A DNA stretch of 64,000 nucleotides, taken from a virus (lineage: Duplodnaviria > Heunggongvirae > Uroviricota > Caudoviricetes). A model generated the notes under the pieces. It worked only from the letters and a program-made list of their open reading frames with translations, was not told the DNA's origin and did not search any database. Location of the stretch: the IMG/VR virus record IMGVR_UViG_3300028888_000086. One strand, 5' to 3'. Position numbers and translations under genes: made by a program. Below are positions 4,886 to 47,186 of the stretch, one piece after another (positions within the stretch are counted from its first letter, which is position 1; every line of letters begins with the position of its first letter).

Positions 4886-4892
4886 TAATATT

Positions 4893-5260
4893 CCACTAGG
4901 TTCGTTATTCCTAGTGCGTTCTCAGATAATAATATCTTGAACTGCTTATACTTTCATATAAGATTAGACTATATCTTCATCCTTAATTACTTAAGGAGCT
5001 TAGCACTTCCACTAGACTTCTAGTGTACTCTCTTTCGAGATAGTCGTTGGGGTTAAATCTATTATACTGAGTTGGTCAATTCTCAGTTTAATTATATTTA
5101 AATTTAACCTGCTGATTGCCCATTGTTTCATATTAACCTTGTTCATCATAAGTGACCAAACCTACTATAGTTAATCTTTAGGGGATTCCAGCATTTCACT
5201 AAGTGTACATAACATATTACTATGTTACTGCTCAATTTTACACAAAGCATAGAGCATCCC
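4893..5260 (-). mobile_element. group I intron (family 1, no ORF) in rpoB-like gene; boundaries +/-10 nt
   Basis: It separates ...RRIPFINSTDSVRISMG (aligns to SLIPFLEHDDANRALMG) from MKQSIPLV. Minus-strand R element CCCCAACGACUAUCUC at ~5036-5053 and S element GGAUGAAGAUAUAGUCUAAUC at ~4957-4978 are in the right order and spacing. The terminal G precedes exon 2. Confidence 0.7.
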
Positions 5261-6567
5261 ATTGAAATACGAACAGAGTCAGTAGAGTTAATAAATGGAA
5301 TACGTCTGGTTGTTGAAGAAAGTCGATAATCAGGGTGTAAGTCTATTAAATCTATTTCTTCTACATTAACCATTTTTCTTTTCATTCTATATTTTACCTC
5401 TACTTGTCCACTTTCATTAGGCTTTAATATTTTCTTATCATAATCAACAAATTCAGATGCACATACTTTAGAATTCAAATAATCAATATAAGGAATAGTT
5501 ATCTTATTAAATTCTTTATCATATACATCAAACATTACACCATCATCAGTAATATGTGTAGATACTGTTAATGAGTTTTGTTTATTTGTATTATTATTAA
5601 TAGGAGTATCAGCTAAGTCAATAAGATCCGTAAAAGTTGTATTAAAAGCCGTAGTTTCAGGTATTTGAATTTTACTACCTAAACTATCCAAATTTATAGC
5701 ATTGATTCCAGGAGGTACTTGTAAATTACTATCTCCTTTTGATTCACTAGTTCCTTTAAAAAATCTAAAAGCTAAAGTTGTAATAGCTGTAACTTCTTCT
5801 TGAATCTTATTATACTTAGTAAAATAACTAGTAATTCTTCTTCTTGCTGATATATAATTACTTCCATTACTAGATCTAAATAAGAAATTCATAAAACTAG
5901 TATATACACTATCTATCTTCTTATCAACTATCAAGTCCTTTAGTCTATCATCCCCGAAAGCTAAACACTCATCAATAAGCTTTGTAGTAATATATTCTGG
6001 CTTATAATCTAAATCTAACTTAATCTGAAATTTCTTTATTTGTATATCAGTAAGTTTTAGTTGTTCTTTTTTATCACCAGTTAGTTTATCAATGTCTTCA
6101 TACTTAATTTCTATAGCTCTTTCTGAAACACTAGGATTTAATTCATTCTGCCTTTTGATTTTTAATACACCTTTTTTGATATCATATTTTCTATTATAGT
6201 CAAAGTTTATATATTGATCTCCTACATCAGACATACGAATCCTACAGTCAAAATCTCCGTCTAATTTATTTGTTGCAATTCTATAAGCTCCTTCGATAAT
6301 AAAAGCTCCATCAATCTCTTTAGGTATTTCAAAAGTTGCATATTTTATCTCAGGGTTATCATTTAATCTATACGAAATTTCTATTAGGTGAGATGCTGTT
6401 AAACTATTTTCTATATAATAAGCAGCTGGTCTTGGTGGTTGTTCTTTAATAGTATAATCTAAATCTACTATACTATATTTCGTATTAAATGAATCCACCT
6501 TATTAAAAAACCTAGTTACTATAGTTTTAATACCATCTCTTTTTAATAATTCATTGAAATTACTCAT
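5146..6567 (-). CDS. rpoB: RNA polymerase beta subunit, N-terminal exon (true exon end ~5257-5261; ORF tail reads into the intron)
   Basis: IDGAFIIEGAYRIA (GxFIINGxERV), LQVPPGINAINLDSLG (ETPEGPNIGLI), RRIPFINSTDSVRISMG. Confidence 0.85.
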   Translation of the reverse strand: MSNFNELLKRDGIKTIVTRFFNKVDSFNTKYSIVDLDYTIKEQPPRPAAYYIENSLTASHLIEISYRLNDNPEIKYATFEIPKEIDGAFIIEGAYRIATNKLDGDFDCRIRMSDVGDQYINFDYNRKYDIKKGVLKIKRQNELNPSVSERAIEIKYEDIDKLTGDKKEQLKLTDIQIKKFQIKLDLDYKPEYITTKLIDECLAFGDDRLKDLIVDKKIDSVYTSFMNFLFRSSNGSNYISARRRITSYFTKYNKIQEEVTAITTLAFRFFKGTSESKGDSNLQVPPGINAINLDSLGSKIQIPETTAFNTTFTDLIDLADTPINNNTNKQNSLTVSTHITDDGVMFDVYDKEFNKITIPYIDYLNSKVCASEFVDYDKKILKPNESGQVEVKYRMKRKMVNVEEIDLIDLHPDYRLSSTTRRIPFINSTDSVRISMGCSMLCVKLSSNIVICYVHLVKCWNPLKINYSRFGHL

Positions 6568-6571
6568 CTTT

Positions 6572-6919
6572 TTATACTAATGATTTTATATTGATTTGTT
6601 TATACTCACAATCAACTGAATTAAAGAACTCCTCTAATTCATTCTTTATTTTATCTTTTATATCCCTAGCAGCAACATACTCACTCATAGGTAATTCTCC
6701 ACTACATCTTATAAATGCACTATAAGATACTAAATAATTATACGTATCTTTTAATTGATATATAACTAACTTTACAGAAAATCTATCATATTTTTCTGGT
6801 ATACTATTCTTTAAAGTTTCGTATAATATATCTCTGGCTTTTGTAATACTTGGATCTAAATTGTCTTCTAATATGTTGTAAGGAATTTCATAAGATAATA
6901 AAATTTCAAAATAATTCAT
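6572..6919 (-). CDS. hypothetical protein between rpoC and rpoB
   Basis: 115-aa ORF in RNAP operon context. Confidence 0.5.
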   Translation of the reverse strand: MNYFEILLSYEIPYNILEDNLDPSITKARDILYETLKNSIPEKYDRFSVKLVIYQLKDTYNYLVSYSAFIRCSGELPMSEYVAARDIKDKIKNELEEFFNSVDCEYKQINIKSLV

Positions 6920-6933
6920 AAACTTTAAAATTC

Positions 6934-7147: not shown

Positions 7148-9244
7148 TTAACCTAATTTGTCGTTTACTAACAAACCTAAAATAACTTCTGACATTACGT
7201 CTCCTTGTAATGAAACCTCTCCTTTTAATGCTTTACTAATTGACTTAGAAGCAAAACCATAAGAAAGAGTTGTATAGAATGAGGGCTTATTTAATACTGC
7301 TGATTGAGTTCCTTGATACTCTATTTCCTCTATTTTTGAAGTTTTAGGATTATAAACAACTCTAGTTAATCCAGCAAATAATAACTCAATAAGCTCTTCT
7401 TGCATTGAGTGTAAATCAGTAATGCCAGTTTTTTGGAATCCATCGTCAGTAACTTCATAAAATTGTTTTCTAAAAATGGTATAAACACTATTAATATCCT
7501 TAACTTTATTAAATCTAGCAGCTATATTATCCATTCTAACAACACCATTACATATTCTATCAAATTTCTTTACTTTAGCACCATCTGGGAAATAATATAT
7601 ACATTTAGGATTATATAAATACTCTTCATTATCTATATAAACATGAATATTACCATTTTTATCCTCATCATATTTTATTATTCCATCATTAATAGCATAA
7701 CAGTCTGATACTAAAACATTTTCTTTCTCAAAATATCTTTGTCCATTACTTCCTCTAGCTCTAAGAAGATTAATTAGGCAGTTTAATTTATAGATAGGAG
7801 ATGTTGTATTATAGGCATAACAAACCTCTTCTCCAGCCTTAAACGTACTTTTACCAACAGTCACTAAATTATCTGGACGTGGATATTTTAATTCTGCTCC
7901 ACGAACTTTAAGGTAAATCCACTTACCCTCTTCTCTAAATGTACAATCTTTAGGGGCTATTAAACAACTAGTTAAATCCAGCTTCCTTTCGTGGCCGCCA
8001 TGTTTTAAGCCAAGAGCTGTTTGAGTTGTACTTTCCATAAGAGAAGTACCAAATGAGAGACCTATAGCAGCACCATCAGTAAAATCAAATTTATTTTTAC
8101 CTAATAAGTCTGGAGTTACTACATTTAAATCTCCTTTATTTTTAGTAACTATAGATCTAACTAGCACTAAATCATCTTCAGAAGGTCTAGCGATCGAGGT
8201 AGTTGGAAATACTTTACCATCTACTGTTGTTCTTCCTAATGCTTTATATCTTGGGATTAATAAACCCTGATTATCTAAATCTTCACCATCTCTATATATA
8301 TAGGAATTTAAACAATAGGAAATTTGACGGTTTAACCATCCGCTCGATGGCACACCGCTAACTTTAATAGATTGTAGTGATCTGTTTTCAATACTATGGT
8401 AGATCATATCTTTTTCATTTAATCCAGTTAATAAAGATCCCCTTGTAATAACAGGTTTTTCATCTATACCAGATATAATGAATTGAGGCATGTTTAGAGC
8501 TGAAATACTAGAAATCTTAACTCTTCCTGCTCTATTTAATTCATCTTTTAAATCGTCTGAAAATTTACCCTCAACTTCTTTTTCATAATCAGCATATTTT
8601 TTAGTTAACATAGCTAATTTTTGTTTGTCAGTAAGTTCTTCAGAGTCAGCTATTCTACAAATTTCTTTATAAGTTTCTGTATCCGTGTCTGCGAATAATG
8701 TTTTGAATGAAAATGTTACAACGCCAGCTTGAGTTACGGCTCTTAATGCCAACTTTTGTAATTCACTTCTTTTTTCTACTCCCTGTTCATCTCTATTTAA
8801 GTAAGAAGATAATTTTACAGCAGCTTTAGCATCCATTCTAGTATATGGATCTTTTAATATATTTAATTTATCTATATCAGCATCCAATATCTTAGAAATC
8901 CTTATTTTACCATAGCATGTTGTTTTACTTTTATAATCTTCACTTCCTATCTTTCCAGTAAAAACAATGGGGGTCCCGTATTTTATCTTTTTTTCAACTT
9001 CAACATCCTTTAGTAAATCCTCGTAGCTTGTATAAAAATATTTTGGATTATCTAAGTCATCGGGATTTTCTAAAACAAACTCGGTTAAAACAGCCAAACC
9101 ATTTAAAGTTTCGTGATTAAATGGAAATATTGGCATGTTATTTTTCTTATAAACATTTACATATCTTGGGGACATTTTATTGTAGGTATCTTCTGCTACA
9201 CTTTCATCAACAAGTTGAATCGAAATTTGATCCCCGTCAAAATC
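7148..9244 (-). CDS. rpoC: RNA polymerase beta' subunit exon 3 (starts at DFDGDQ; the track's TTG start at 9256 is intron sequence)
   Basis: DFDGDQISIQLV is the catalytic NADFDGDQMAVH motif; long C-terminal beta' body. Confidence 0.9.
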   Translation of the reverse strand, partial: DFDGDQISIQLVDESVAEDTYNKMSPRYVNVYKKNNMPIFPFNHETLNGLAVLTEFVLENPDDLDNPKYFYTSYEDLLKDVEVEKKIKYGTPIVFTGKIGSEDYKSKTTCYGKIRISKILDADIDKLNILKDPYTRMDAKAAVKLSSYLNRDEQGVEKRSELQKLALRAVTQAGVVTFSFKTLFADTDTETYKEICRIADSEELTDKQKLAMLTKKYADYEKEVEGKFSDDLKDELNRAGRVKISSISALNMPQFIISGIDEKPVITRGSLLTGLNEKDMIYHSIENRSLQSIKVSGVPSSGWLNRQISYCLNSYIYRDGEDLDNQGLLIPRYKALGRTTVDGKVFPTTSIARPSEDDLVLVRSIVTKNKGDLNVVTPDLLGKNKFDFTDGAAIGLSFGTSLMESTTQTALGLKHGGHERKLDLTSCLIAPKDCTFREEGKWIYLKVRGAELKYPRPDNLVTVGKSTFKAGEEVCYAYNTTSPIYKLNCLINLLRARGSNGQRYFEKENVLVSDCYAINDGIIKYDEDKNGNIHVYIDNEEYLYNPKCIYYFPDGAKVKKFDRICNGVVRMDNIAARFNKVKDINSVYTIFRKQFYEVTDDGFQKTGITDLHSMQEELIELLFAGLTRVVYNPKTSKIEEIEYQGTQSAVLNKPSFYTTLSYGFASKSISKALKGEVSLQGDVMSEVILGLLVNDKLG

Positions 9245-10736
9245 CTTGATATTCAAGCAGTTACGTTACTTCTGCCTCGTTCTCTTATGAACTGCTATAT
9301 GTCTCCATATAGAATAGACTATATCTTCATTATTAAATTTCTTAATAATGTTCCGCTTTTCCACTTACGATTTTAGTGTACTCCTGTAAAAGGATAGTCG
9401 TTGAGGAACAATAAACTTATTAGTCAGATAAGTTTTTTATTTCTTTAAATAATTCATCTAGATCTTCATATACTTTATAAGGATACTTGAAATCACTGTC
9501 TGACTTAGTTTTTATAATATTTGAGTAATAGAATACTCGTAAACCATGTTCTAAACAAAGATTTCGTTTATTATCATCCATTTTAACTCTTTCTTCAAAA
9601 GTATATTTTTTATCAAAAAATTCAGTTGGTTTAAAATGTTGTAATCCTTGACACTCTATAACTGCATTAAAGTCGGGTAAGTAAAAATCTACGTGCTGTT
9701 TTCTTTTATACTTTAACCAATCCCAGGTATATTGTTTTATTATATTAATATTATTATCTTTACAATATAATTCAATATCAACTTCTAAAATAAATCTATC
9801 TCCACAACTAGGACATCCACAATTACTTAAATGTATAGATGGTTGCTGCCAAAACGGTCCATGAGAATTACATATTATCTTAACTGGTGTAGTACAATTT
9901 ACGTACTCAACTTCATCATATCCATAAGTATCTTTATGTATTAATTTTGCGCGACGTATAAATTCTTCAGTATTAATATTAACTCCACCATTACACTCTG
10001 AACACCCATGTCCATATAAATGATCATGTGGTCTTTGAGTAAATTCTTTTTTACACCTATTACAAATCAATTTAACTGGTGTATTGATATTTACATAATT
10101 TACTTCACTGTAATCATATTTATCTTCGCCATGTACTTTTTTAGCTGCTTCTATAAAACTTTCTGTTGTGTATTTTTTATATGGACTTGGATTACATTCT
10201 TTACATCCACATCCCTGTAAAATATCAACCGGCTTAATTTCAAAATACCCATGTATATCACAATTTAGTATAACAGGCGTACTACTATTAATATAATTAA
10301 CTTTATTATATCCGTATCTATCTCCATGAATCTCTCTAGCCTTTTCTATAAACTGTTCCTGTGTATATTTTACTCCACCTTTACAGTTAGGACATCCTTG
10401 TCCACAGAGATGATTGTGTGCAGTCTGAATAAATTCATTTCTGCACTTATTACAAATTATAATAACTTTATCTTTACTTGATGTATAATTTACTTTGCTA
10501 TAATCATATTTATTTTCACCATGTACTTTTTTAGATCTTTCTATAAATTCTTCTGTTGTATATTTTTTCATTATAATTTTAGTTTATATAATTTATTTAT
10601 ATTGTTCCTGCTGATTTTCTCTATTTTATGAATTTTTAGGGTAGGTGACTAAATCCTACATTAACCTCCTATCATAAACCTAGCGAGAGTTTCCAGCATT
10701 TAACGGAATTTTAAAACACCAATTTTAAAATATTTT
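9245..10736 (-). mobile_element. group I intron B of rpoC (family 1), ~1.49 kb, carrying a homing-endonuclease ORF in a peripheral loop just upstream of P7
   Basis: R UUCCUCAACGACUAUCC (~9393-9409) and S GAAGAUAUAGUCUAUUC (~9311-9330) lie downstream of the ORF stop. The intron ends ...AUCAAG before GAU UUU GAC. The 5' exon ends in U (GCU). Confidence 0.65.
9420..10571 (-). CDS. intron-encoded homing endonuclease-like protein: 4 tandem Zn-ribbon repeats plus C-terminal Vsr/PD-(D/E)xK-like nuclease domain
   Basis: The repeat YT.E.FIE...K.HG..YDYS.VNY....P..I.C..HG.F.Q.P..HL.G.GCP.C occurs 4 times. The C-terminus has HVDFYLPDFNAVIECQGLQHF (DFYLP..N.AIE..G.QH). Confidence 0.75.
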   Translation of the reverse strand: MKKYTTEEFIERSKKVHGENKYDYSKVNYTSSKDKVIIICNKCRNEFIQTAHNHLCGQGCPNCKGGVKYTQEQFIEKAREIHGDRYGYNKVNYINSSTPVILNCDIHGYFEIKPVDILQGCGCKECNPSPYKKYTTESFIEAAKKVHGEDKYDYSEVNYVNINTPVKLICNRCKKEFTQRPHDHLYGHGCSECNGGVNINTEEFIRRAKLIHKDTYGYDEVEYVNCTTPVKIICNSHGPFWQQPSIHLSNCGCPSCGDRFILEVDIELYCKDNNINIIKQYTWDWLKYKRKQHVDFYLPDFNAVIECQGLQHFKPTEFFDKKYTFEERVKMDDNKRNLCLEHGLRVFYYSNIIKTKSDSDFKYPYKVYEDLDELFKEIKNLSD

Positions 10737-10814
10737 AGCGTTTAATGGACTACATATGGAGATTGGGAATCTAAGTACATAATCACCATCTCCAGGTTCA
10801 TTTAACCTAACTTT
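10737..10814 (-). CDS. rpoC: rpoC mini-exon 2 (78 nt), encoding KVRLNEPGDGDYVLRFPISICSPLNA
   Basis: It encodes exactly the ~26 aa missing between ...RPPTLH (exon 1) and DFDGD (exon 3). It aligns to bacterial [29 protein letters not shown]. It is preceded by G (10815) and ends in U. Confidence 0.7.
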
Positions 10815-11120
10815 CATACAAAACATTGAATATTCCGAAAAATACTTATATTTTCATATAAGACTAGACTATATCATCATCTATATTTCAAGATGGACTG
10901 CGCTTCAAAAATAGGAATTTCACCTATTTCTTACTCCATATAGGATAGTCGTTACACCTTTTTTGATTTATAATTTCAAAACTTGGCTCGGGATTGCCAT
11001 ATTATATTTCTATAACTTAGGTTTCCCCGATAGCAGAGATTTTATTTTCTCCACACCTAGCATTTACTAGTTCACAGTCTTTGCATTATAAGATCGCTCT
11101 TATAAGTCACAAATTTCTTT
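10815..11120 (-). mobile_element. group I intron A of rpoC (family 1, no ORF, ~306 nt)
   Basis: R GGUGUAACGACUAUCC (~10943-10958) and S GAUGAUGAUAUAGUCUAG (~10867-10884) are present. The 5' exon ends CAU (U). The intron ends UGUAUG. Confidence 0.7.
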
Positions 11121-12281
11121 ATGAAGTGTAGGAGGCCTATTAATAATTACTAGTTGTTTTTCTGCAAATTCCTTAAATAATTTTTGAGTTTCAGGATTAA
11201 ATGCTTCTTCTCTAGTAGCTTTCATAGCCTCTTTGTATGTAAAGTTAAGCTCTTTCTGTAGATGTTCAATAAATTTTTCTCTAAGTAATTCATAAGCAAT
11301 AGATACAGGAATACCAATTTCATCAATCTTCAAATCTGTTGCTGGAACAATTGGACATCTTGCAGAGTTTTTTGTTCTTACTCCAAATAATTCACGGGCT
11401 AAATTTTCTTTGGAGGTATTTAATAATTCAGTAGCTTCTTTTTTACCTGTATTCAAAAAAGCTCTAAGTAATGCAGTATATCTAACTTTTTCGCCAGGAG
11501 TTTTAAAGCGGCCAATTACTTCTTCATAATTCAGGTCATTACTTTTTTTATCCTGTACACAACAAAGTCTAATAATAATACTGTACCAAACTGACAATTT
11601 ACTAGACCCTTGAGTTTTCTTACCATTTTTATATTCAAAGGTAACGGGTCTCATCATTGCAGGTAATACTAAATAATATCGATTTATAAGTTTTCTGAAT
11701 TCGTTTGCTCTTTCTGGGAAGTGTTTTTCTATAATAGCTAACAGACCTTCATAAGAACATTTAGATTCATCTGTTATAAATTCAGATATTTTTAGTTCTT
11801 TCTTTGTGGGACTATAAGTAAATTGGCAAGTATCAAAAACCTTTATAGTTAATTTCTTTCCACCACGACCAGCATATCCTAAGTTTTTGAAATCATTACC
11901 TTGGAAATCTAGTTTGATAGTACTTTCAGAAAATATATCATCAAATAATTCTTTAAATATATCAAATCTCAAGTCATTTAAGTAATAAAAAGGTAATTCT
12001 ATTCTTGCAAATCTTCTCATACCTTCCTCTCTTGTAAAAACTCTAGCTCCACAAAAAGGGCAAGGTTCATGAGAGGCTCTTTTAATTTTACCACAAATAC
12101 AACGATCTTCATAGATTGACCCGAAAGCATCAACATCATAAACTCCTCCAGGTATGGGTTCAGGATAGTTGAATTTCAGGTTAAAGTCTCTATGATCAAA
12201 TAAAACTCTATCTCGACCATCACTTCTTGTATAGTCTAATATAGCTTCATCTGTTAATAATTCTAGTGATACTTTTGACAT
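11121..12281 (-). CDS. rpoC: RNA polymerase beta' subunit exon 1 (through ...INRPPTLH)
   Basis: N-terminal Zn finger CICGKIKRASHEPCPFCG, RFARIELPFYY (RMGHIEL), INRPPTLHK (LNRAPTLHR). The annotated tail EICDL* is intron read-through. Confidence 0.9.
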
Positions 12282-13544: not shown

Positions 13545-13560
13545 AAATCCTTATATATGA
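13545..13560 (+). promoter_or_regulatory. conserved promoter-like motif (AAATCCTTATATATGA) driving the tRNA cluster
   Basis: It is a family member of the AAAGCCTTATATATGTA motif, and the first tRNA starts 7 nt downstream. Confidence 0.55.
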
Positions 13561-13678: not shown

Positions 13679-14088
13679 GGCGGCATGTTGGAATTGGTAG
13701 ACAAGGCGGTCTTTTTGCCAATTAGACAAACAAAAGAGAGTGCATAGGTAAGAAATTCCTATGTAGAACCTCTCAAATTCGGTGGAAGTCTCTATGAGAA
13801 AATACCGAGCTAAATCAGATTTAATTCTGTAAATGTGTAGAGAGCAGAAGGGAGGTACCTAAGTTGAGAAAAGCATTGAGTATGACGGTAGTGCGGAGGT
13901 GTCAGCCTCAGGATTGGTTCGACTCCAAAATGCTGAGTTGCAACTTTTTCAATATGGTAATGGTGTGCTCCAGACCACAACAACACAATTAGTCGCCAAG
14001 CGTCTGAGAAAGTTGGCTATGGTAACATAGTGTGGTAGGAAAAACCGCTCCCAATTATGGGGTCCCAGTTCGACTCTGGGTGTCGCTA
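13679..14088 (+). tRNA. tRNA-Leu(UAA) interrupted by a 326-nt group I intron between U34 and A35 (exons 13679-13713 and 14040-14088)
   Basis: 5' exon GGCGGCA TG TTG GAATTGGTAGA CAA G GCGGT CUU. 3' exon AAAA ACCGC, long variable arm TCCCAATTATGGGG, T-arm CCCAGTTCGACTCTGGG, acceptor TGTCGCT (two G.U pairs with GGCGGCA). The intron ends ...GUAGG. Confidence 0.75.
13714..14039 (+). mobile_element. group I intron (family 2) in the tRNA-Leu(UAA) anticodon loop
   Basis: Canonical cyanobacterial/plastid trnL insertion site. The 5' exon ends in U and the intron ends in G. It has internal P7-like pairing UUCGACUCC / UUAGUCGCC, and shares AAUACCGAGCUAA with the AAA+ ATPase intron. Confidence 0.65.
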
Positions 14089-14136
14089 CAAAAGAGGTGA
14101 AAAATCCTCTTTTATTTTTCCGTCTATAAATCCTTA

Positions 14137-14154
14137 AAAGCCTTATATATGTAA
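14137..14154 (+). promoter_or_regulatory. promoter-like motif AAAAGCCTTATATATGTA preceding a ~140-nt structured non-coding region
   Basis: Motif family member. It sits immediately after the hairpin AGAGGTGAAAAATCCTCT plus T-run. Confidence 0.5.
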
Positions 14155-14335
14155 TGGAGATCGAGCTAATAGTTAATTCCGATTTTCCGGGGTAAAGACG
14201 CACCCGGCAACAGAAGTGGTCAAATTTATGAAAAGGGAAAGCCTGAGAATGCACCATTACGTTAGACTGTGCAAAAAACTTGGGCTTTCCTAATTTTTTT
14301 TCAAGACTTTTATGTCTTTTTATTTTTTTTCTTGA
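14155..14335 (+). ncRNA. candidate small RNA (promoter to double terminator)
   Basis: No ORF. Stems CCGGGG...CCCGG, GGAAAGCC...GGGCUUUCC plus U8, then AAGACUUUUAUGUCUU plus U-run. Promoter upstream and next gene's promoter downstream. Confidence 0.4.
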
Positions 14336-18045: not shown

Positions 18046-18354
18046 ATGATTAAATCTGATAATTACAAATTAAAATGGATTGATGAAGGAGGTATATTTT
18101 TCCCAGTTAATGGAAATACTATATTACATTCATCATTAGGTCCTGGTGTCTGGAAAGTTGTACCTAGTCCTCGTATGAATGATGGAAGATTAGGACTAAC
18201 TAAAGTATGTGATAAATTTGAATTCGAATACAAAATTTATGACATAGGAAATAAAAGCTTCAGAGATAAAGTTATTAATGTCTGGAATTCTGATCTGTTT
18301 ATAGAAGATGGAAGAAATTTAGGCATAATAATGAATGGAACAAAAGGAACGGGT
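18046..18354 (+). CDS. AAA+ ATPase exon 1 (ends ...NGTKGTG, first half of Walker A)
   Basis: The ORF ends exactly at GTKGTG-stop and the exon ends in U (GGU). Confidence 0.7.
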
Positions 18355-18616
18355 TAAATAAATAGCCCTTCTTCTAAGGAATTAGAAGAATTTTTAAGGA
18401 ACGAATTCGGTGAAGGCTGTGATGCTAATACCGAGCTAACAGAAATAATTACGTAAGGTATTTCTGTAGTGTAGAGCATAGTAGTTGAATAAATATAATA
18501 CTACCAAGAGCGCTCCTTACCCCAACTGAAATAAGTGGGTAAAAATATATGCCGAGCTTATAAGAAGAAGAATTATAAGAGTCTAGGGATAAAAAGCTCT
18601 AGAGATAACAAAACTG
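18355..18616 (+). mobile_element. group I intron (family 2) splitting the P-loop codons of the AAA+ ATPase gene
   Basis: Joining the exons gives GTKGTG|KTVSAKLLCNELNMPVLIVDSDF, i.e. GxxGxGKT. The intron contains AAUACCGAGCUAA and CCGAGCUUAUAAG, shared with the trnL intron, and ends ...AACUG. Confidence 0.65.
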
Positions 18617-27973: not shown

Positions 27974-28032
27974 AATAATTTATATATTCAATTATAAGAT
28001 TTTTAAAACCTTATATATGTAAAATTTTAATT

Positions 28033-31293: not shown

Positions 31294-31643
31294 ATTATAT
31301 TATATTAAATTTATTTACATTATTTTCACAGACGGGCTGGCCTTGTGCAAGCCCAACCTAATAAATTACTGATTTTTATATTTATTTTATTTCTTTTTTT
31401 CATATATAGGATTTTTAAGGGATAATAAGTGTGTTTTTTACATTTCATGAGAAAATTTTAGGGATGTTACAAAGAATACTATTAAATATGTAAAAATGAG
31501 AAAAAATGTAAAATATCTCATAAATAACACAGGGGTCTATTCAAGAGTAAAAAAGTCTGGAAATTTTTTCTGTAACGAAGTGGAAAGAAAAAATTTGGGC
31601 AACTCCTAGGCTGCCCCTCTGTCTTTAAAAATGGGAAATTTTC

Positions 31644-31934: not shown

Positions 31935-32154
31935 TTTACTTAGATTTAATTTAATTTAATTTCAATAATAAGGATTTGAAGAATTATTAAAAAAGAAGGA
32001 AGTTTCACCATCCCGGCTACTTCTTCCTAAAAATGTCATACAAAAACAACTGAATTATTGAGAATCATGCTTCCTCACATATATAAGGATTTCAGCTCTC
32101 TTTATTTTTAATTTATTTTTTACCATCTTTAAGTATTTTAATTTTTTCATAGTA

Positions 32155-34863: not shown

Positions 34864-35865
34864 TTATTTATCATTTATTAGACTGCTTGAATATTGAGAA
34901 ATTACTTGACATTCAGCTGTATTTCTAAAAGTATCTAAATCTCGAGAATTACAATATGACATAGCAGAACATAAGTAATCATGCATATTTTCTACCCATC
35001 CTTCTAAAGTATATTGTTTCTTTAATATAATTTCTCTCCCTTCTGATGTTTTTAATTCTGTAGATTTTTTACCCATTTGTTTTTGTGCTTTTTTAGTAGA
35101 CATTCCATAATAAGATACTGGATCACCTACATTTTCTCCTTTTTTAGCAGCTACAGTAAATAATTTTCCACACATTACATAATCAGCACCTAAAGCAATA
35201 CACTTTATAACCTCTGAATAACTAGAGATACCTCCATCAGCTATAATTTTACATTTACCTAATATTTTTGTTTTTATTTTTCTTATATCATCAAGTAAGG
35301 AAGCTAATGGATAGTGTACTCCAGTTTGCGTAGAAGATAAACAAGATGATCCCCCACCAATCCCCACTCTAATAAAATCCGCACCAGCATTTTCGTATTT
35401 TTCATAAGTTTCTGGATTTGCTATATTTCCTACCATTACAACAACATTAGTACCAAATTTATTTTTTAATTTTTTACATAAGTCTATTTGTTTTTTCATA
35501 TGTCCATTAGCTACATCAATTAAAATATGATATCTAATACTTTTTGCAGGTACAGGAAACTCTAATATATCTTCTACTTCTTTAATTGAAAAAGCACAAA
35601 AATATTTAGTCATTAATTCAACTCTTTTTTTAGATGATACTGTTCTAGGAATTATAACAGATATACCCAATTTATCATATTCCTTATAATTATTTTCATC
35701 TAATACACAGGACATAGGAGCAGTAATAAGAGGTAAATATTCTTCTCTTTTTCCAGTAATATCAAAACAAGTAGGATTACATTCAGATCTACTTTCAATT
35801 TCACTTATAACACTAGGAATAATACTAATATCCCTTAATGAATACAATGTTTCTTTATAAATCAT
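34864..35865 (-). CDS. guaC: GMP reductase / IMP dehydrogenase-family TIM-barrel enzyme (GuaC-like, no CBS domains)
   Basis: IDVANGH (IDVANGY), IRVGIGGGSSCLSSTQTGVHYPLASL ([27 protein letters not shown], catalytic Cys), ADGGI; ~333 aa. Confidence 0.65.
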   Translation of the reverse strand: MIYKETLYSLRDISIIPSVISEIESRSECNPTCFDITGKREEYLPLITAPMSCVLDENNYKEYDKLGISVIIPRTVSSKKRVELMTKYFCAFSIKEVEDILEFPVPAKSIRYHILIDVANGHMKKQIDLCKKLKNKFGTNVVVMVGNIANPETYEKYENAGADFIRVGIGGGSSCLSSTQTGVHYPLASLLDDIRKIKTKILGKCKIIADGGISSYSEVIKCIALGADYVMCGKLFTVAAKKGENVGDPVSYYGMSTKKAQKQMGKKSTELKTSEGREIILKKQYTLEGWVENMHDYLCSAMSYCNSRDLDTFRNTAECQVISQYSSSLINDK

Positions 35866-36618: not shown

Positions 36619-38781
36619 ATGAGTACACAATTAATTTTTGTGATCGTGAGTATAGTAGCATTAGTGTTACTATCGACTGTTGTACTGATCTTAACTCGGT
36701 ACAAAAAATGTAAATCAGACGAACTTCTAATCGTCTATGGTAGAACTTCAAAAAAGAAACTAAGATCTGCCAAGGATGGTGAGAAGGTTGAAATCGATTC
36801 TAGCAACTGTAAGTGCATTCAAGGTGGTGCAAAGTTTATTATCCCAGTAATTCAGGGATATTCGATCCTTAAGATGACACCGAAACAAATTGTATGTAAC
36901 TTAACGAATGCTCTTGACCTTCAAAAGATTGAGACATCGGTTAAGACTGTTATTACTGTTGCTATTTCTAAGACTCCAAGCGTTCAAATTAATGCCGCGA
37001 CTAGATTATTAGGATTAGATGACAAAGAAACTAGTTCGCTCATAAGTGAGATCTGTTTCGGTTCTTTGAGACTAGTGGTTTCTGAGATGTTACTTGAAGA
37101 TCTTGTTAATTCGAGAGATAAGTTTTTGGAACTCTGTAAGACAAGAATTGGATCTGAACTTGAAAAGATTGGTTTTGACTTAATCAATATCAATATTTCA
37201 GAAATTTCCGATAATGCTCACTACCTAGAAAATCTTGGTAAGAGTGCTGAGGCACGTGCTACATTTACTGCAAAGAGTGAGATTGAAAAGCGTACTAAGG
37301 AAGGTGAAATCGCGATAGCCACTCAGAAACAAGAGAAGGAAGTAAAACTCTCTGAAATTTCTCGTGATAAGGAAATTCAAGTTTCTGAAAACAAGAAACA
37401 GCAGGATATTAGAACTGCTGAAATTGAACGTGATAGGGTTACCACAACGGAAACAACTAAGAAGGAACAGGAAGTTTCTCTTAGGGATATCGAACGTGAG
37501 AAAAAAGTTCAAATAGCTGAGAAAGCCAAAGAGGAAACAGTTAAGATTCGTGAAGTTGAAAAGAATCAAACTTTGGAAACAGCCTCACTTGAAAGAGAAG
37601 AGGCTGAAAAGAAGTCTGAAATTGAACGTGATAAGCAAATTACTATTGCAACGAATCAGAGTGAACAAGCCCAGAAAGTGGCTGAACAAGAAAAACTTAA
37701 ACAATCTGAAGTTGCAAAACAATCTGCTGAGGCTCAAACTGCTGTTGCTACCGCTAATGCAGAACGTGATGCTAAGATTGCTGAACAAGAATCAAAATCT
37801 GAGGCGGCCCAAGCTAAATCTCGTCAAGATGCAGCAGCTAGTGTAGTAGAGGCTGAACAAAATGCTGAAGCTAGAAAAGAAACTGCTAAACAAGAGGCTA
37901 TAGCTAAGAAGAAAGAGGCTGAACAAAAATCAGAATCTGCTCAGGCTAAGGCTACTCAAGAGAAAGAAGCTCAAATAGCAGAATATGACTCTAGTCGTCG
38001 TAAGAGAACAGCTGAAGCAGATAAAACTGCTACAATTACGGAAAATACTGCTGGTATTGAAATTGCAAAATCAGATGCTCAGTTAGGTAAGGAACAAGCT
38101 GAGTCTCAGAAAATCATTGGTGAGAGTAAAGCTCAGTCTGAACAGGCTATTGGTATCGCCCAAGCCAGGAAGGATGAGGAAATTGCAGTAGCTCAGGCTA
38201 AGGCAGAAAAAGCCAAGCAGGAAGCAACTATCATGGTTGGTACTGAAATTGAGGCCGACAGAAAGAGAACTGAAGCTAAAGGTAAGAAGGATTCTACTAT
38301 TACTGAAGCTGAAGGTGAAGCCGAAGCAATTAAATTGAAAGCTTTTGCAGAAGCTGAAGCAATTAAGGCTAAAAAACTTGCAGAAGCTCAAGGAGAACTT
38401 GCTCTTGCAGAAGTACAAAAAGTACTTGAAGCAGCTAAATCCGAATCTTTGGCGAATCTTGCAAAAGCTAATGTTGCTGCAGAAGCTCAAATTAGTTGGA
38501 TTCTTAGAGATCAGTATGCTGAGATGATTGAAGCTGATTCAAAGAAATTTGAACATCTTACAACAGGTGATATCAAGATTATTGGTGGTACTGATACTGC
38601 TGGTAAGTTTTTGAAAGACACCGTTCAAGCTGTTCAACAATCTTCAATGCTCAGTGAATTTTTACCAGGTCTTGGAGGAGTTTTAGGAAAATTGGATAAA
38701 TTCGATAAAAAGAATCAAGTCCAATCGAGTGAAAATTCAGAGCAATTAGAAGCTCCAGAAGAACCTGAGTCAAAAGAATAA
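36619..38781 (+). CDS. floT: flotillin-like SPFH-domain protein with long E/A/K/Q-rich coiled coil (FloT/YuaG-like)
   Basis: N-terminal TM helix, SPFH-like region, AEAEAIKAK...AEAQ flotillin-type EA repeats, and conserved C-terminal IIGG.D. GC is ~40% against ~25% in the surroundings. Confidence 0.75.
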   Translation: MSTQLIFVIVSIVALVLLSTVVLILTRYKKCKSDELLIVYGRTSKKKLRSAKDGEKVEIDSSNCKCIQGGAKFIIPVIQGYSILKMTPKQIVCNLTNALDLQKIETSVKTVITVAISKTPSVQINAATRLLGLDDKETSSLISEICFGSLRLVVSEMLLEDLVNSRDKFLELCKTRIGSELEKIGFDLININISEISDNAHYLENLGKSAEARATFTAKSEIEKRTKEGEIAIATQKQEKEVKLSEISRDKEIQVSENKKQQDIRTAEIERDRVTTTETTKKEQEVSLRDIEREKKVQIAEKAKEETVKIREVEKNQTLETASLEREEAEKKSEIERDKQITIATNQSEQAQKVAEQEKLKQSEVAKQSAEAQTAVATANAERDAKIAEQESKSEAAQAKSRQDAAASVVEAEQNAEARKETAKQEAIAKKKEAEQKSESAQAKATQEKEAQIAEYDSSRRKRTAEADKTATITENTAGIEIAKSDAQLGKEQAESQKIIGESKAQSEQAIGIAQARKDEEIAVAQAKAEKAKQEATIMVGTEIEADRKRTEAKGKKDSTITEAEGEAEAIKLKAFAEAEAIKAKKLAEAQGELALAEVQKVLEAAKSESLANLAKANVAAEAQISWILRDQYAEMIEADSKKFEHLTTGDIKIIGGTDTAGKFLKDTVQAVQQSSMLSEFLPGLGGVLGKLDKFDKKNQVQSSENSEQLEAPEEPESKE

Positions 38782-39199: not shown

Positions 39200-39900
39200 A
39201 AAAAATAAACAGATATATTAATTTACCTGTTTACATATATAAGGCTTTCAAGGATTATTAAACGGTCGAAAATTTAAAGCCAAAAAAAATCAATTAAAAT
39301 ACTTAAATTTATAATTGAATATCAGGCTTTTATTACTACGACCGAAATTAATAAAACACACTTTATAAACATTAAAAATCTTATAAATAGAAAAAAAGAA
39401 CCCAGCTTTAATGCCGAGAAAGAAATTTAGGTTTTCTTATTATATTAGAAGTTATTGTTTTCTTAATTTAATTTTGACTTCACTTATTATTGATTTATAG
39501 TTATATCGTTTTGTGAATTTAATATAATCTAAATCTTTTATTCTTAGTCTAGGTAATATCATAACAACACCTCCTTTCAAATTTTTACCTAGGGTTCTTT
39601 TACCAGCAATGTTATATTTTGCTGGTTTTTTTTGTTAATAATTTCGAAAATAAAAATAAACAAGTATTTAATTTACCTGTTTACATATATAAGGTTTTGA
39701 AGGATTATTAAACGGTCGACACTTTAAAGCCAAAAATCAATTAAATACTTAGATCTATAATTGAATATTCTCGGCTTTTATTATTACGACCGAAATTAAT
39801 AAAACACACTTTATAAACATTAAAAATCTTATAAATAGAAAAAAAAGAAAGAACCCAAGATTAAACTTAGGAAAGAAAGAATAATTTGCTTTCTTATCTA
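39200..39900. repeat. two tandem ~250-bp repeat copies (~39200-39445 and ~39648-39900; period ~450 bp). Each holds a minus-oriented promoter plus TSS hairpin and a conserved structured element (nested stems CGGTCG...CGACCG / AAAGCC...GGCTTT) with an identical 60-nt block
   Basis: Direct sequence comparison: cgaccgaaattaataaaacacactttataaacattaaaaatcttataaatagaaaaaaa is identical in both copies. Confidence 0.7.
39500..39610 (-). CDS. small ORF (~35 aa, MILPRLRIKDLDYIKFTKRYNYK...) with the only canonical Shine-Dalgarno (GAAAGGAGGTG) seen in the window
   Basis: Downstream of the repeat-copy-2 promoter on the minus strand. The SD sits 7 nt before the ATG. Confidence 0.35.
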
Positions 39901-40202
39901 TCGTAGAATTAAGTCTTTTTACGGAACTTAATTATATTTTCTTTTGTAATGGATTTTTGATTATATTTGGTTCTTAATTTTACATAATCTATATTATCCA
40001 TATTAGTTTTAAGTTTAAATTCTATCAATTTTCTTACACATCCTTTCTAATTTTTGATAGACTTTCTTTTCCTAGGATTTTAATAGTCCTAGGTTTTTCT
40101 TTTTTGTTAATTTGTTTCGAATAGGGAGATATTTCACTCCCTGGGTTTTAAGTTGTTGCGTTTGATATTAATCGATTAATGTCTTCTTCTGTTGATAATA
40201 CT

Positions 40203-41107: not shown

Positions 41108-41306
41108 AATTTATCCTTTCTTTTTTTGTTAATTTAATTCTTGAAAATAAAATAAATGTTATCATAATTTTACCTATAATAACATTTACTACTATGTGTT
41201 CCGACTTCGTTCCGTAAACTTCACTAGTCTTCACATATATAAGGCTTTCAAGAATTATTAAATGGAAAAATAAAAAGAGAGAATTTTATTTTCCCTCTTT
41301 ATTTTT

Positions 41307-43162: not shown

Positions 43163-45650
43163 ATGAATAGAAGAATAGTAATTATTGATCCAGAAGAAAC
43201 CCAAGATAGTGTAAAATATTGGGGATTAGGATTAGGAACTGAGATTTATTTAACAGACTCTCTCAGTAAATTAAGCGATCAAGAGTTAAAAAATGGATTA
43301 AGTTTGGGACCTACTGATGCTGCTATGTTAGTCGGTGGAGGTGGATTTAACTTCTTCTTTGAAAAAACTGGTCTTCATGCTGGGATTAGAAGTGAGAACT
43401 GGTTTGATTGTACTAAGTTAGATCGTCTTAGTGTTGAAGGTGGATCTTATGTTAAAGTTCAAGCAGATTTACCAACACTAGAAGAGATTAAGTATTTTAT
43501 GAGTCCTGAATTTACTCAAGATGTAGATTTCTCATGGTTTAAGTCTAAGGTTATTCATGATTTCCAAGGCGCTATGAGATTCTTAGATTGGTTAGATAGT
43601 TTGCCAATGGATGAAGATTTTGCGGCGGATATCGAGGCAAGTGGTTTCCCGATGGATAAATGGTATGAGTGGTCTGGTGTATCAATCTGTAATAAAAACT
43701 TTGGAGGATTTATTAGCTTTACAGATATTAGATTTACTGCAACTAAAGAACAATATGAAGAGTTATTAAAGAAGTTAGGATTCTTTCTTACTAAACGAAT
43801 GAGTCATATTTGGACTTTTAATATGGGTTATGAGTTCCTGGCGTTTCATAGGATGTTAGGAGTAGATCTTTATAATTTATGTGATGCTGGAGTTTATAAT
43901 ATACTTGACGGATACCATAAAGATAAAAAATATAGTTTAAAGTGGACTGCACAGAGAGTAGTAAAAGCAAAAGTCTGGGATACTGAATTTGATTGGATTT
44001 CTGATATAGTTGATTCAATGCTTTATACAGTTGAAGGAAAGTTGAAAAAGGAAAAACATAAAGTGCTAAAAGTAACTCCAGAAAATTATAAATTAACAAA
44101 TGAATGGAAAGCTTTATGTAATAGATATCCTGAATATGTAAATGAATTTGAATCACTTATGTCTATCTATTTTGGAAATCCTTACATGATAATTCCTAGT
44201 GAGATTTTAGGTAAGTATTGTAATTTAGATGCTTTCTATACTTTGATGATACATTTGACTGAAAAACATTTATATACAGATAAAGCTAGAGAAGTATTTT
44301 TAGATAATATGAGATTAGCAACTAGACTTCACTCGTGTGGAATGCCTAAAGATGAAGAATATAGAGCAGCTTATGAACAATACTGTAAAGAGCAATCTGC
44401 ATTTGGAATTACTTATACAGCTATGGCCCGTTGTTTCTATAAGATGGAAAAACATAAAAAACTCATGGCAAATATAGATAAGTATTCAGACGTTGCTAAA
44501 AAAATGCTATATTCAAATAGATTCTTTAATGGTGATCCTATTGCTATTACTAAAGATATCCTAATTAATAATGTAGATGAACTTGATGCTTATGAATTAG
44601 GTTTAAATGAGGGAAAGTTATTAATGGATTATGGACCTGAATTTGCCGAAAAATTTATAGAGTATACAAGAGAAGCTATGGAAGAGTGTGAGATGATTAA
44701 GCTATATAAGAAAACAGGCCAAAAAGTATTAAAAAAGAAAATAGATAATACTGTTGGTGGGAAGAAAAAACTTATACAGGTACTTAGTCAAAAAATCATA
44801 CCTTTAATTGGACTTGATAAAATAAAAATTAATAATAAACATATAGAGCTTGAAAAATATTTATATTATAAAAGAGCTTATGATGAATTAACAAACGTAG
44901 TTAATACTCAATTAGGGGATATCTATCATATTCCTAAAGAAGTATATGCATTTGGTAGAAGAATGGAATTACTTGAATATAATAATTTAATAGTTTCTGA
45001 ATATTTTAAATGTTCTTCACCTATAGAAAACGACGAAATAGCAAAAGAATTAACAGAACTATTTAAACCACAGACTATATTTCTTGCTACCATATTTACG
45101 ATGACTCAGCAACTTCCAAATGCTGAAAAATACTATAGTGAATTAGGTATTAACACAATTGAAGAAGCTTATGAACATTTTATGAGTAATTGGAAAGCTT
45201 ATGCAAATGATGGTATACCTGTAGGACAAACACAATATCCAGAACAAATTTATACAGAGGCAGGTACATTCTATAAAAACATATCTTTAGATCCAGTTAA
45301 AGATGTTTGGACTTCCTTCGATGGATATCATGCAGAGTCCCAATTTTTCAAGTATGTAGATGATCAGTATTTAGAATATGAAAAACCATTTAGTCCAAGT
45401 GATTTAGATAATATTTGGTTCTTTCATAGAAAAATGACAATTAATTATTTAAGATATAAGAAATATGAAAAGATAAGAAGTACGTATTTATGTGGAATGT
45501 TTGAAGCAACTGATAAATGGGTTCTCGAAGATCCTAATAGTCATGTTGTTATTAGAGAATGTGATGAAAATGAACCAGGAGCAATAAAAAAGATGTTTGC
45601 TCATTTCGCTTGTATGGAGAAACAAACAAAGCGCTGGTCATCGGGTGAAA
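43163..45650 (+). CDS. polA: family A DNA polymerase exon 1 (3'-5' exonuclease plus N-terminal polymerase region; exon end approximate, the ORF tail to 45679 reads into the intron)
   Basis: DIEASG (Exo I DxE) and QTKRWSSGE (TGRLSSSDP region). Confidence 0.75.
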
Positions 45651-45894
45651 TGTTAGCCCCTCTATATAGTGATATATAGAGAAAATCCTGAATATGCTGG
45701 AAACTCCTAAAGCTTTATCTACCAAAGTGTGAAAATGATAAAGATATTACAATGGACAATCAGCAGGGATAACTCTGTAAAAAGAGAAGCCCTCAACGAC
45801 TACCAAGGGACATCTAAAATAAAATTAGATGAAGGTATAGTCTAAACCCAAAATAAAATATCTCGAAAGGGAGGGTATCAATTGTATCACACAA
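45651..45894 (+). mobile_element. group I intron 1 of polA (family 1, no ORF; boundaries +/-30 nt)
   Basis: R CCUCAACGACUACC (~45790-45803) and S GAUGAAGGUAUAGUCUAAACCC (~45829-45850) on the plus strand. These are reverse complements of the rpoB/rpoC intron elements. Confidence 0.6.
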
Positions 45895-46529
45895 TAATCT
45901 CAAAATCAGATATAAAAAGTACCATTTGTTCTTATCCAGGACATTTATTAAGTTATTTTGATATAAGTTCAGCGGAGGTAAAGAGTGCTGGATTTATGTC
46001 GAAAGACGAAAACTTAATAAATATGTTTAAAAATAATATTGATGTATATATAGCAACAGCAAAATCGTATCTTCAAGATAGATGGGATACATTAACTAAA
46101 AAAGAGCAAAAAGCATTTAGAAAAACATTTAAAACTGTTACACTTGCACTTATTTACGGGCAGGGCGTTAATGCCCTAGCTAGTAGATTAAACATTACTA
46201 AGCAGGATGCTCAAGCTATTGTAGATCAAGTTTATACTTCTTATCCAAAACTTAGAGAATATATTAAAGAACAACAAGAATATCCATTACATCACAACGG
46301 AAGAGTGCGAACTTTCTTTGGAGATGTTTTGGTTGCAGAAGAATGGAAATATTATTTAAAAGCTACAGATCCATATGAAAAAAAAGCATTAGCCGCTCGA
46401 ATTGGCAGGGCTGGGAGCAACTATCCCATACAAGGTGGCACGAGCCTGGCGATGAGCAGTGGTTTCTTTAACGACCTACGAGTAGCAAAACAAGAAGGTT
46501 GGGATTTAACAAGTTTTATAACGGTCCAT
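45895..46529 (+). CDS. polA: family A DNA polymerase exon 2 (motif A through motif C His)
   Basis: SYFDISSAEVK (DYSQIELR), TLALIYGQGVNALASRL...YTSYPKLREYI (motif B/O-helix region), NYPIQGGTSLAMS, ending ...TVH| at the H of the catalytic VHDE. Confidence 0.8.
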
Positions 46530-46815
46530 AAGTAAAATTGTGGCATACTGAAGTAATTTAGTATGAAAAAGATTGTGAACTCATATATGTGAGGTGTCTA
46601 AGAAAATAAAAAATCTTAGGCTAACGGTAAAAGCTAAGTTAGAAATAATATGCTAATACCGTGCCAAGTCAGAAATGAAAGGTGTAGAGACTATCCTTTA
46701 TGGAGTAGGTTTATAGTGAAATTCTATATTCCGAAGTGCAATCCATCTTGCAATATAGATGATGATATAGTCCAGCTCTAATGGAAACATTAGGAGAAAG
46801 CGGATTCTAATACTT
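46530..46815 (+). mobile_element. group I intron 2 of polA (family 1), inserted inside motif C between His and Asp
   Basis: The 5' exon ends CAU. R GGUGUAGAGACUAUCC (~46678-46693) and S GAUGAUGAUAUAGUCCAGC (~46759-46777) are nearly identical to rpoC intron A. The 3' end is approximate. Confidence 0.6.
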
Positions 46816-47186
46816 GTGATTTTCCAGCAGATAAATTATGGGATATCAGAAAATTTTACGATCATAACTTTACAGATTTTTGCTATGAAATGACAGGAAT
46901 TCAGTTATTGTTTGATATCTTAATTGGAGCGTCATATCAAGATGCATGTGAAGCTAAATCAATAGATGATAATACTGTAGAATTAACGGGTAACGCACGA
47001 TCCCATTTAATGATTATACAAAAACTAAATGAATGTCCTGGTCTAAAATATACTATAGACATGAATATAGATGATATAGTACCAGATTTTGAAACTAATT
47101 GTACAAAAAGATTTATAAAAGAAGCAGGATGTTCGTTTGTTATGGATAATTCAAAATATTCAATCAAGTATACAAGATTGAGTTAA
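46816..47186 (+). CDS. polA: family A DNA polymerase exon 3 (C-terminal tail; contains annotated ORF 46890-47186)
   Basis: The open frame extends upstream of the Met to ~46795 and would begin DDFPAD... after VH, giving VHDD. IIQKLNECPGLKYTIDMNI resembles the Pol I C-terminal IHQLMENCTRLDVPLLVEV. Confidence 0.5.

Follow-up and report, generated by a model that had tools for sequence, protein, structure and literature searches.

Group I introns very probably interrupt five genes in a 64,000 nucleotide (nt) stretch of DNA, referred to here as the window, that belongs to the tailed virus recorded in IMG/VR as IMGVR_UViG_3300028888_000086 (Caudoviricetes). Seven such elements, spanning 42 kb of the window, were identified: one in rpoB and two in rpoC, which encode the beta and beta' subunits of a phage RNA polymerase, one in a tRNA-Leu(UAA) gene, one in the gene for an AAA ATPase and two in polA, which encodes a family A DNA polymerase, such that four protein genes and one tRNA gene are disrupted. 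The preliminary description of this DNA, made from the letters alone, had proposed these same seven introns, and is borne out by matches to the Rfam group I intron model RF00028 (five of the seven), by the seven highest-scoring matches of a separately built covariance model, by features of the splice sites and by splicing in silico. The genes and introns are listed below, with lengths of products given in amino acids (aa) and introns lacking an open reading frame (ORF) described as ORF-less.

3026-6567, minus strand: RNA polymerase beta gene (rpoB; Pfam Rpb2_6), exon 1 at 5245-6567 and exon 2 at 3026-4882; uninterrupted product of 1059 aa when spliced.
4883-5244, minus strand: rpoB_i, 362 nt, ORF-less, between GCSML and KQSIPL.
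7148-12281, minus strand: RNA polymerase beta' gene (rpoC), exons 11121-12281, 10737-10835 and 7148-9244; 1118 aa when spliced.
10836-11120, minus strand: rpoC_i1, 285 nt, ORF-less, between NRPPTLH and EYSMF, in a conserved beta' motif.
9245-10736, minus strand: rpoC_i2, 1492 nt, with an ORF, between PLNA and DFDGDQ, in the catalytic aspartate triad.
13679-14089, plus strand: tRNA-Leu(UAA) gene.
13714-14039, plus strand: trnL_i, 326 nt, in the anticodon between U34 and A35.
18046-19549, plus strand: AAA ATPase gene, exons 18046-18354 and 18617-19549; 413 aa when spliced.
18355-18616, plus strand: AAA_i, 262 nt, ORF-less, between NGTKGTG and KTVSAK, in the Walker A loop.
43163-47186, plus strand: family A DNA polymerase gene (polA), exons 43163-45646, 45885-46529 and 46803-47186; 1170 aa when spliced.
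45647-45884, plus strand: polA_i1, 238 nt, ORF-less, between KRWSSG and YHTIIS, just upstream of polymerase motif A.
46530-46802, plus strand: polA_i2, 273 nt, ORF-less, between FITVH and DSNT, in polymerase motif C.

Excision of the introns in silico leaves each of the four protein genes as a single open frame, and alignments to intron-less homologues span every protein junction without gaps. For rpoC, 35 intron-less beta' homologues (1113-1131 aa) cover 100% of the spliced product and read continuously through the site of rpoC_i2 as ...PLNADFDGD..., while many intron-less PolA homologues (1150-1230 aa) likewise cover the whole of the spliced polymerase. Matches to Pfam profiles improve on splicing and cross the junctions: the Rpb1_2 score of rpoC rises from 36 to 65 bits, and that of the AAA profile from 24.7 to 46.2 bits, with the matched part of the profile extending from positions 43-129 to 2-129. 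Spliced PolA matches DNA_pol_A in a single stretch over both junctions, covering profile positions 80-379 of 381, in a run that used a provisional 3' junction of polA_i1 three residues (YQL) longer than the final one; the site that would add YQL was ruled out by alignment to intron-less homologues. The same type of alignment set the 3' splice site of rpoC_i1 after ...UUUUUCG and ruled out an alternative after ...AUAUAAG, which would add the residues YFS. In the alignments of homologues the insertion positions show little or no variation, in keeping with the original statement that all seven introns lie within highly conserved motifs.

Several features expected of group I introns are common to the whole set. 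A U·G pair in the P1 helix at the 5' splice site can be read directly from the sequence in all seven cases, and all seven introns end in a G (omega-G) immediately before the 3' exon, at junctions fixed by intron-less homologues or by the fold of the tRNA. The P1 helices comprise UGCUU/GAGCA in rpoB_i, UCAUAAA/UUUGUGA in rpoC_i1, AACGCU/GGUGUU in rpoC_i2, UCUU/GAGA in trnL_i, GGGU/GCCC in both AAA_i and polA_i1, and CCAU/GUGG in polA_i2. In every intron P7 is paired at five of five positions, as GACUA/UAGUC in five of them and in the compensatory forms GAGCA/UGCUC in trnL_i and GCAUA/UAUGC in AAA_i, and P4 is formed by four different complementary sequences among the seven. Statistics of P7 covariation are inflated and partly circular, as the outside sequences were selected for complementarity in P7, and only the seven rows from the window are informative. 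Inspection by eye showed hairpins between P7 and the 3' strand of P3 (P7.1 and P7.2) in four introns (rpoB_i, rpoC_i1, rpoC_i2 and polA_i2) and a single one in AAA_i, but none in polA_i1 or trnL_i; P9.1 and P9.2 were read in the same way in rpoB_i. Hairpins P7.1 and P7.2 are typical of subgroup IA2 (T4 td-like), and a compact core lacking them is typical of IC3 (tRNA-Leu-like); judged by eye, a tentative assignment would be IA2-like.

The model RF00028, which has a gathering threshold of 50 bits, matched five introns when short stretches were scanned (in the case of rpoC_i1, the match came from the 64 kb scan), scoring 74.7 bits for rpoB_i, 69.4 for rpoC_i1, 52.7 for polA_i2, 48.0 for polA_i1 (E = 7.6e-11) and 32.5 for trnL_i; rpoC_i2 could not be matched whole because of its ORF. 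With default filters, an Rfam search of the entire window missed all seven when the gathering threshold was applied and recovered a single one at the E-value threshold (for 64 kb), and a search of an 8.6 kb stretch missed both polA introns. Because short stretches recovered the introns, these misses represent losses at the filtering stage, and the window illustrates how poorly the group I introns of AT-rich phages are detected under default Rfam filters.

The second covariance model, R1, was constructed from 26 aligned elements of other IMG/VR viral contigs, picked through a P4-P6 motif, TTCGGTG...TACCGAGCTAA, that is common to trnL_i and AAA_i. Only sequences from outside the window were used, since a joint MAFFT alignment of the seven cores misplaced P4 in rpoB_i, rpoC_i2 and polA_i1. 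RNAalifold recovered P4, P5 and P7 from the R1 alignment unaided. When R1 was run with filters off against both strands of all 64 kb, its seven best matches were exactly the seven introns: AAA_i (84.2 bits, E = 3.5e-14), trnL_i (71.8 bits), rpoC_i1 (49.4 bits), polA_i2 (42.5 bits), polA_i1 (21.3 bits, E = 0.035), rpoB_i (19.8 bits, E = 0.07) and the 3' half of rpoC_i2 (12.9 bits, E = 1.4), with everything else scoring at most 12.3 bits (E of at least 1.8). The preliminary description had looked to covariance models as the means by which its reading might fail; between them, the two models instead recognise these regions as group I. No eighth intron was found in the whole window using nhmmer with 82 intron queries and by inspection of the remaining long non-coding gaps, of which 31294-32154, 41108-41306 and 50886-52418 were rejected as introns, being ordinary intergenic regions comprising a terminator and a promoter.

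A number of observations weigh against the identification of all seven as group I introns. AAA_i has no match to RF00028, and the scores of trnL_i and polA_i1 lie under the gathering threshold of that model. R1 favours trnL_i and AAA_i, because its training elements were chosen through their P4 motif, and its matches to rpoB_i, polA_i1 and rpoC_i2 are weak on their own; that of the 3' half of rpoC_i2 barely clears the best background match (12.9 against 12.3 bits), such that R1 adds little for this intron. Helices except P1, P4 and P7 were assigned by eye, and the restoration of genes through splicing is an in silico prediction in all seven cases. The layout of rpoC_i1 and polA_i2 is also unusual in comparison with textbook group I introns, in that the 3' strand of P3 (CGCAGUC and UGCAAUC, respectively) seems to pair well only with a GACUGUG or GAUUGUG sequence that precedes a pair of additional hairpins separating P3 from P4. 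This pairing is backed by one compensatory change, from C-G to U-A; RF00028 effectively deletes P3 in polA_i2.

Intron rpoC_i2 is the only one of the seven to carry an ORF, as had been noted originally, and this is situated in the loop of P6 (GGAACAAT...ATTGTTCC). A second gene encoding a similar nuclease domain lies next to polA.

9420-10571, minus strand: ORF of rpoC_i2, 383 aa, in which repeated DUF4379 modules (treble-clef zinc fingers) are combined with a nuclease domain at the C-terminus.
47228-48850, minus strand: free-standing homing-endonuclease-like gene, 540 aa, lying directly downstream of polA in convergent orientation.

The product of the intron ORF is predicted to be a zinc-finger (DUF4379) homing endonuclease, on the basis of matches to Pfam DUF4379 (E = 1.8e-9), PHROG 559 (E = 2e-91) and PHROG 9084, annotated as 'homing endonuclease' (E = 2e-17), as well as to PHROG 681. 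The suggestion that 47228-48850 represents a free-standing gene of the same general type is upheld: residues 406-502 match PHROG 9084, PHROG 19778 and PHROG 559, and the nuclease domain is 46% identical to that of the intron ORF over 70 aa (E = 5e-17). The C-terminal nuclease domain is all that the two proteins have in common, and the free-standing protein has no Pfam match. The ORFs that were screened, a part of those in the window, include no further endonuclease gene.

Some homologues of beta' are N-terminal proteins of around 720 aa, pointing to another split or an intron near residue 720 in these relatives. A protein-level search with the rpoC junction region, aimed at a comparison of insertion sites with those of phage AR9, returned only distant, uninformative matches. 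In polA, the ORFs of relatives (P0101-P0183) end at no fewer than six distinct conserved positions, these being KRWSSG, YFDI(SSAEV), WRKR(F/Y), LPIQG, (I/V)VVH and SSKR, and including both of those occupied here, which implies that this gene family may have many alternative intron sites.

The interrupted tRNA-Leu gene was detected by ARAGORN when introns were allowed, and the spliced RNA, 85 nt in length and of class II, folds as tRNA-Leu(taa). The position between U34 and A35 is the classical site of the bacterial tRNA-Leu intron (PMC13011429). trnL_i shares with the bacterial and plastid tRNA-Leu(UAA) introns both this site and a similar P7-P3'-P8 sequence pattern (PMC13011429), but differs in being encoded by a phage, in the great extension of its P8 arm and in its RF00028 score of merely 32.5 bits. 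Introns of the trnL_i type are also present at 3811-4092 and 5493-5766 of contig L027 and at 4317-4608 of contig L031, two unrelated viral contigs with large tRNA arrays, where they lie in tRNA-Leu(UAA) and, as called by ARAGORN, in a second tRNA. No paper on phage tRNA-Leu introns was found in the literature searched. As a speculative side interpretation, the tRNA arrays of phages might act as vehicles that spread the 34/35 intron of tRNA-Leu(UAA) among bacteria.

Just downstream of the tRNA-Leu gene, the plus-strand segment 14108-14300 could represent a small non-coding RNA: a promoter-like motif precedes it at 14141-14151, and a terminator-like hairpin followed by a run of T residues lies near 14285-14300. 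Its match to alpha_tmRNA is weak and partial (26.6 bits, E = 6e-4), and ARAGORN calls no tmRNA. A 102 aa ORF on the opposite strand, at 13949-14257, is probably spurious.

Evidence regarding the mobility of the introns comes from metagenomic relatives of the phage, among which are intron-minus alleles of rpoB, rpoC and the AAA ATPase gene. The 10.9 kb contig L122, 92.6% identical to the window at the DNA level, has an rpoB that lacks exactly the rpoB_i segment and encodes a beta subunit of 1059 aa, 98.2% identical to the spliced product. By contrast, L121, a 293.7 kb contig whose beta' is 72% identical and which is the closest complete relative, carries rpoB_i at the same site; here the intron is 90.6% identical, and the exons merely 72-73%, such that rpoB_i exhibits both presence/absence polymorphism and stronger conservation than the sequence into which it is inserted. 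L121 has no introns in rpoC, and L122 has a version of rpoC_i2 in which the ORF has a diverged N-terminal half, matching DUF723, DUF4379 and CapR. The AAA homologue P0220, which is 89% identical, is intron-less, and among the closest AAA relatives the Walker A loop is interrupted in some and continuous in others. Comparison of these alleles, together with the varied end points of polA ORFs in relatives and the tRNA-Leu(UAA) introns of L027 and L031, clearly points to the introns having moved between phages.

The insertion site of rpoB_i is the counterpart of GANMQRQAVP in the Escherichia coli beta subunit. When the flanks of this intron (5245-5256 and 4871-4882, minus strand) are compared with the continuous sequence of L122 (5288-5311), ten of the 24 exon nucleotides differ, against around 7% elsewhere, with the protein changing from GCSML-K here to GTSML-R in L122. 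This looks like either a tract of co-conversion or the result of selection on an endonuclease target site.

A model for the behaviour of the introns can be proposed from established group I chemistry, in which splicing is the predicted activity of each. After transcription, each intron would fold into a P3-P9 catalytic core; free guanosine would attack the 5' splice site marked by the U·G pair of P1, and the freed 5' exon would then attack after the terminal G of the intron, ligating the exons precisely and restoring RpoB, RpoC, PolA, the AAA ATPase and tRNA-Leu(UAA). At the DNA level the introns are mobile, or were so until recently, with the rpoC_i2 endonuclease predicted to cut intron-less alleles in co-infecting relatives, into which the intron would be copied by repair. 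The six ORF-less introns may be relics of such a homing cycle, or may be moved by endonucleases acting in trans. Invariant motifs would be occupied because they offer conserved targets across diverged phages and because imprecise deletion from them would be lethal.

The second of these possibilities, that all six ORF-less introns are mobilised by the product of 47228-48850 or by the rpoC intron endonuclease in a form of 'collaborative homing', is a tentative one and, on balance, doubtful. The free-standing gene encodes the nuclease domain of the intron ORF and adjoins polA, host to two ORF-less introns; rpoB_i, also ORF-less, has clearly been gained or lost recently; and phage LPJP1 has ORF-less group II introns for which mobilisation in trans has been proposed (PMC12350094). 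However, one enzyme would be unlikely to have five unrelated exon sequences as its targets, none of the other ORFs screened encodes an additional endonuclease, and either recombination during co-infection or loss of ORFs following fixation explains the ORF-less introns equally well.

The relationships between the introns bear on a further proposal, that they are now jumping between genes within this genome, from rpoC to polA. rpoC_i1 and polA_i2 are mutually closest and form the best pair (77.8% identical overall, z = 21.6), sharing their two unusual P3-P4 hairpins and stretches of 40 nt and 30 nt at 90-92% identity, the former, at around 92%, taking in the 3' strand of P3, P8, J8/7 and the 3' strand of P7. 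rpoB_i and rpoC_i2 are 72.5% identical (z = 14), and trnL_i and AAA_i are weakly related (z = 4.7), having in common only the P4-P6 motif, which is present in more than 120 other IMG/VR contigs. Rather than the two families originally described, the introns, which share one consensus core, fall into three or four clusters: rpoB_i and rpoC_i2, with polA_i1 more loosely attached; rpoC_i1 and polA_i2; and trnL_i and AAA_i. The accompanying claim of near-identical segments indicating ongoing intragenomic mobility does not hold at the identities found. A pair 78% identical is far more diverged than rpoB_i is between phages (90.6%, where the exons are at 73%), its best-conserved stretch is constrained in all group I introns, and insertion elsewhere would depend on a different P1 guide sequence as well as a different endonuclease target, making current movement from rpoC to polA improbable despite the resemblance of the pair.

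The idea that the interruptions are not introns at all, and instead reflect natural gene splits, inteins, decay into pseudogenes or errors of assembly, might draw on the frequent natural splitting of RNA polymerase genes in jumbo phages (PMC7598289) and on the N-terminal beta' ORFs of around 720 aa in some relatives, but is almost certainly wrong, given that all seven inserts contain group I cores, that their removal restores motifs exactly as they are in intron-less homologues, and that the same introns occur in the independent assemblies L121 and L122. Group II introns were likewise considered and rejected, as were natural splits and inteins, the latter being excluded because the inserts contain stop codons.

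The window is part of the genome of an uncultivated, AT-rich (27.5% G+C) jumbo phage with its own multisubunit RNA polymerase. Its gene content includes the phage-type beta and beta' subunits, the family A DNA polymerase, helicases, tRNAs and many orphan ORFs. No near-identical DNA was found by megablast among 50,697 records of cultured phages, and the RNA polymerase proteins are at most around 32% identical to those of cultured phages, such as phages of Staphylococcus, Bacillus (AR9/PBS1), Listeria, Rhizobium and Ralstonia. Metagenomic relatives number more than 100, some of them in ENA ERZ28662269 and Logan ERR14218453; a protein-level scan of IMG/VR with exon 2 of polA returned none. Homologues of polA (57-60% identical) and of the AAA ATPase (around 46-52% identical) occur on contigs of roughly 350-416 kb and, as the G+C content also matches, the phage may belong to or neighbour the Jug clade of gut jumbo phages, which is divided into groups Alpha to Delta (PMC12880540) and for which TerL, MCP and similarity across the whole genome are the criteria of membership.

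Group I introns have long been recognised in phages, with classical examples in the td, nrdB and nrdD genes of T4, in the DNA polymerase genes of SPO1, SP82 and Bastille, and in Twort. These have a core consensus of the same kind as that seen in the window, with an R element ...AACGACUA and an S element AAGAUAUAGUC, and are also inserted in conserved motifs of genes for polymerases and nucleotide metabolism. The td intron of T4 has its ORF, encoding I-TevI, in the P6 loop, as does rpoC_i2, and similar P7.1 and P7.2 hairpins. The genomes concerned hold far fewer introns each, there being three in the 169 kb of T4. The classical pattern in phages is one of introns in genes for polymerases, nucleotide metabolism and RNA polymerase, placed preferentially in conserved motifs and accompanied by endonucleases, whether intronic or free-standing (PMC12908238).

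The closest parallels are found among jumbo phages. Jug gut jumbo phages contain on average 18.5 group I introns per genome, around 206 nt long and mostly ORF-less, the splicing of which is supported by metatranscriptomes (PMC12880540). As points of similarity, Jug and crAss-like phages are AT-rich (27-30% G+C), associated with animal guts and huge, encode RpoC and DNA polymerase, and have essential genes, including that for DNA polymerase, fragmented by many short, mostly ORF-less introns, alongside many stand-alone homing endonucleases (PMC12880540). Jug genomes are 360-402 kb in size, as compared with the 294 kb of the closest complete relative, and the study concerned highlights terL, nrdD and the gene for DNA polymerase, with no such emphasis on rpoB, rpoC, the Walker A loop or trnL (PMC12880540). 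The density of introns in the window, which the preliminary description had called exceptional, is certainly high at seven in 42 kb but is overstated by that term beside the Jug average (PMC12880540). That average corresponds to around one intron per 20 kb and is locally exceeded here, but the window happens to hold the favourite target genes.

Similarly, AR9, PBS1 and related jumbo phages have a group I intron with an endonuclease in the beta' gene, and homologous free-standing copies of the endonuclease in the same genome (PMC12350094), an arrangement resembling that seen here. The CapR/DUF4379/DUF723 and EDxHD/Vsr-like endonucleases of this group consist of three to five treble-clef modules of around 60 aa followed by a nuclease domain of around 100 aa (PMC12350094), a modular architecture that the rpoC_i2 ORF fits, judging by its DUF4379 and PHROG matches. 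The cultured phages of this type differ from that of the window, their RNA polymerases being at most around 32% identical, and no group II intron was found in the window. A mobile group I intron with an endonuclease is likewise found in a jumbo-phage RNA polymerase subunit gene in the case of gp210 of PhiPA3, a member of a different phage family, where the nuclease targets the corresponding gene of a co-infecting relative that lacks the intron (PMC11620839, reviewed in PMC12908238).

Other features of the window were recorded in passing. The sequence CCTTATATATG occurs at 28 sites with one mismatch or fewer, as compared with 3.3 expected by chance; examples are 13549-13559, 14141-14151, 28009-28019, 39234-39244 (minus strand), 41234-41244 (minus strand), 50950-50960, 51422-51432 and 52284-52294. 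These sites are nearly all intergenic, in the same orientation as the downstream gene, frequently found right after a terminator-like hairpin and frequently embedded in a longer repeat, ...(a/t)CCTTgAAAgCCTTATATATGTaa; the motif is probably a promoter for the phage's own RNA polymerase. A cassette of around 450 nt is present in two tandem, diverged copies at 39200-40100 on the minus strand; in each, the promoter-like motif is accompanied by a small ORF (MILPRLRIKDLDYIKFTKRYNYKSI... and ...MDNIDYVKLRTKYNQKSI...) and by a long tail of conserved non-coding sequence (...TTCTATTTATAAGATTTTTAATGTTTATAAAGTGTGTTTTATTAATTTCGGTCGTA...). Notable cargo genes are the following.

26961-27758, minus strand: Thg1-like tRNA-His guanylyltransferase.
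34864-35865, minus strand: enzyme of the GMP reductase/IMPDH family.
36619-38781, plus strand: SPFH/Band 7 protein of 720 aa with a long charged tail.
49179-50885, plus strand: AIPR/Abi-alpha-like protein, its gene adjoining that of the free-standing endonuclease.
52419-55847, plus strand: helicase-methyltransferase fusion of 1142 aa.

The pattern is one already described for gut jumbo phages, to which the window adds a further, well-documented case without revealing any novel type of element, and the earlier interpretation was largely right, apart from the terms 'near-identical', 'ongoing intragenomic mobility', 'two families' and 'exceptional'. A more speculative possibility, and one considered unlikely, is that the introns and endonucleases constitute a weapon-and-shield system in competition between phages. 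If so, the rpoC intron endonuclease and the product of 47228-48850 would cut the codons of catalytic motifs in intron-less, co-infecting relatives, and the ORF-less introns would persist through destroying the target sites, so protecting their carrier; this would account for the occupation, within a single genome, of invariant motifs in the enzymes of transcription and replication together with a Walker A loop and a tRNA anticodon. The main value of the analysis lies in the provision of correct gene models and a clean series of alleles. Gene callers fragment rpoB, rpoC, polA and the AAA ATPase gene and miss tRNA-Leu entirely, and the exact junctions mend all five genes. Together with its metagenomic relatives, the window constitutes a natural series of intron-plus and intron-minus alleles that is useful for the study of homing, exon co-conversion and intron-mediated competition.

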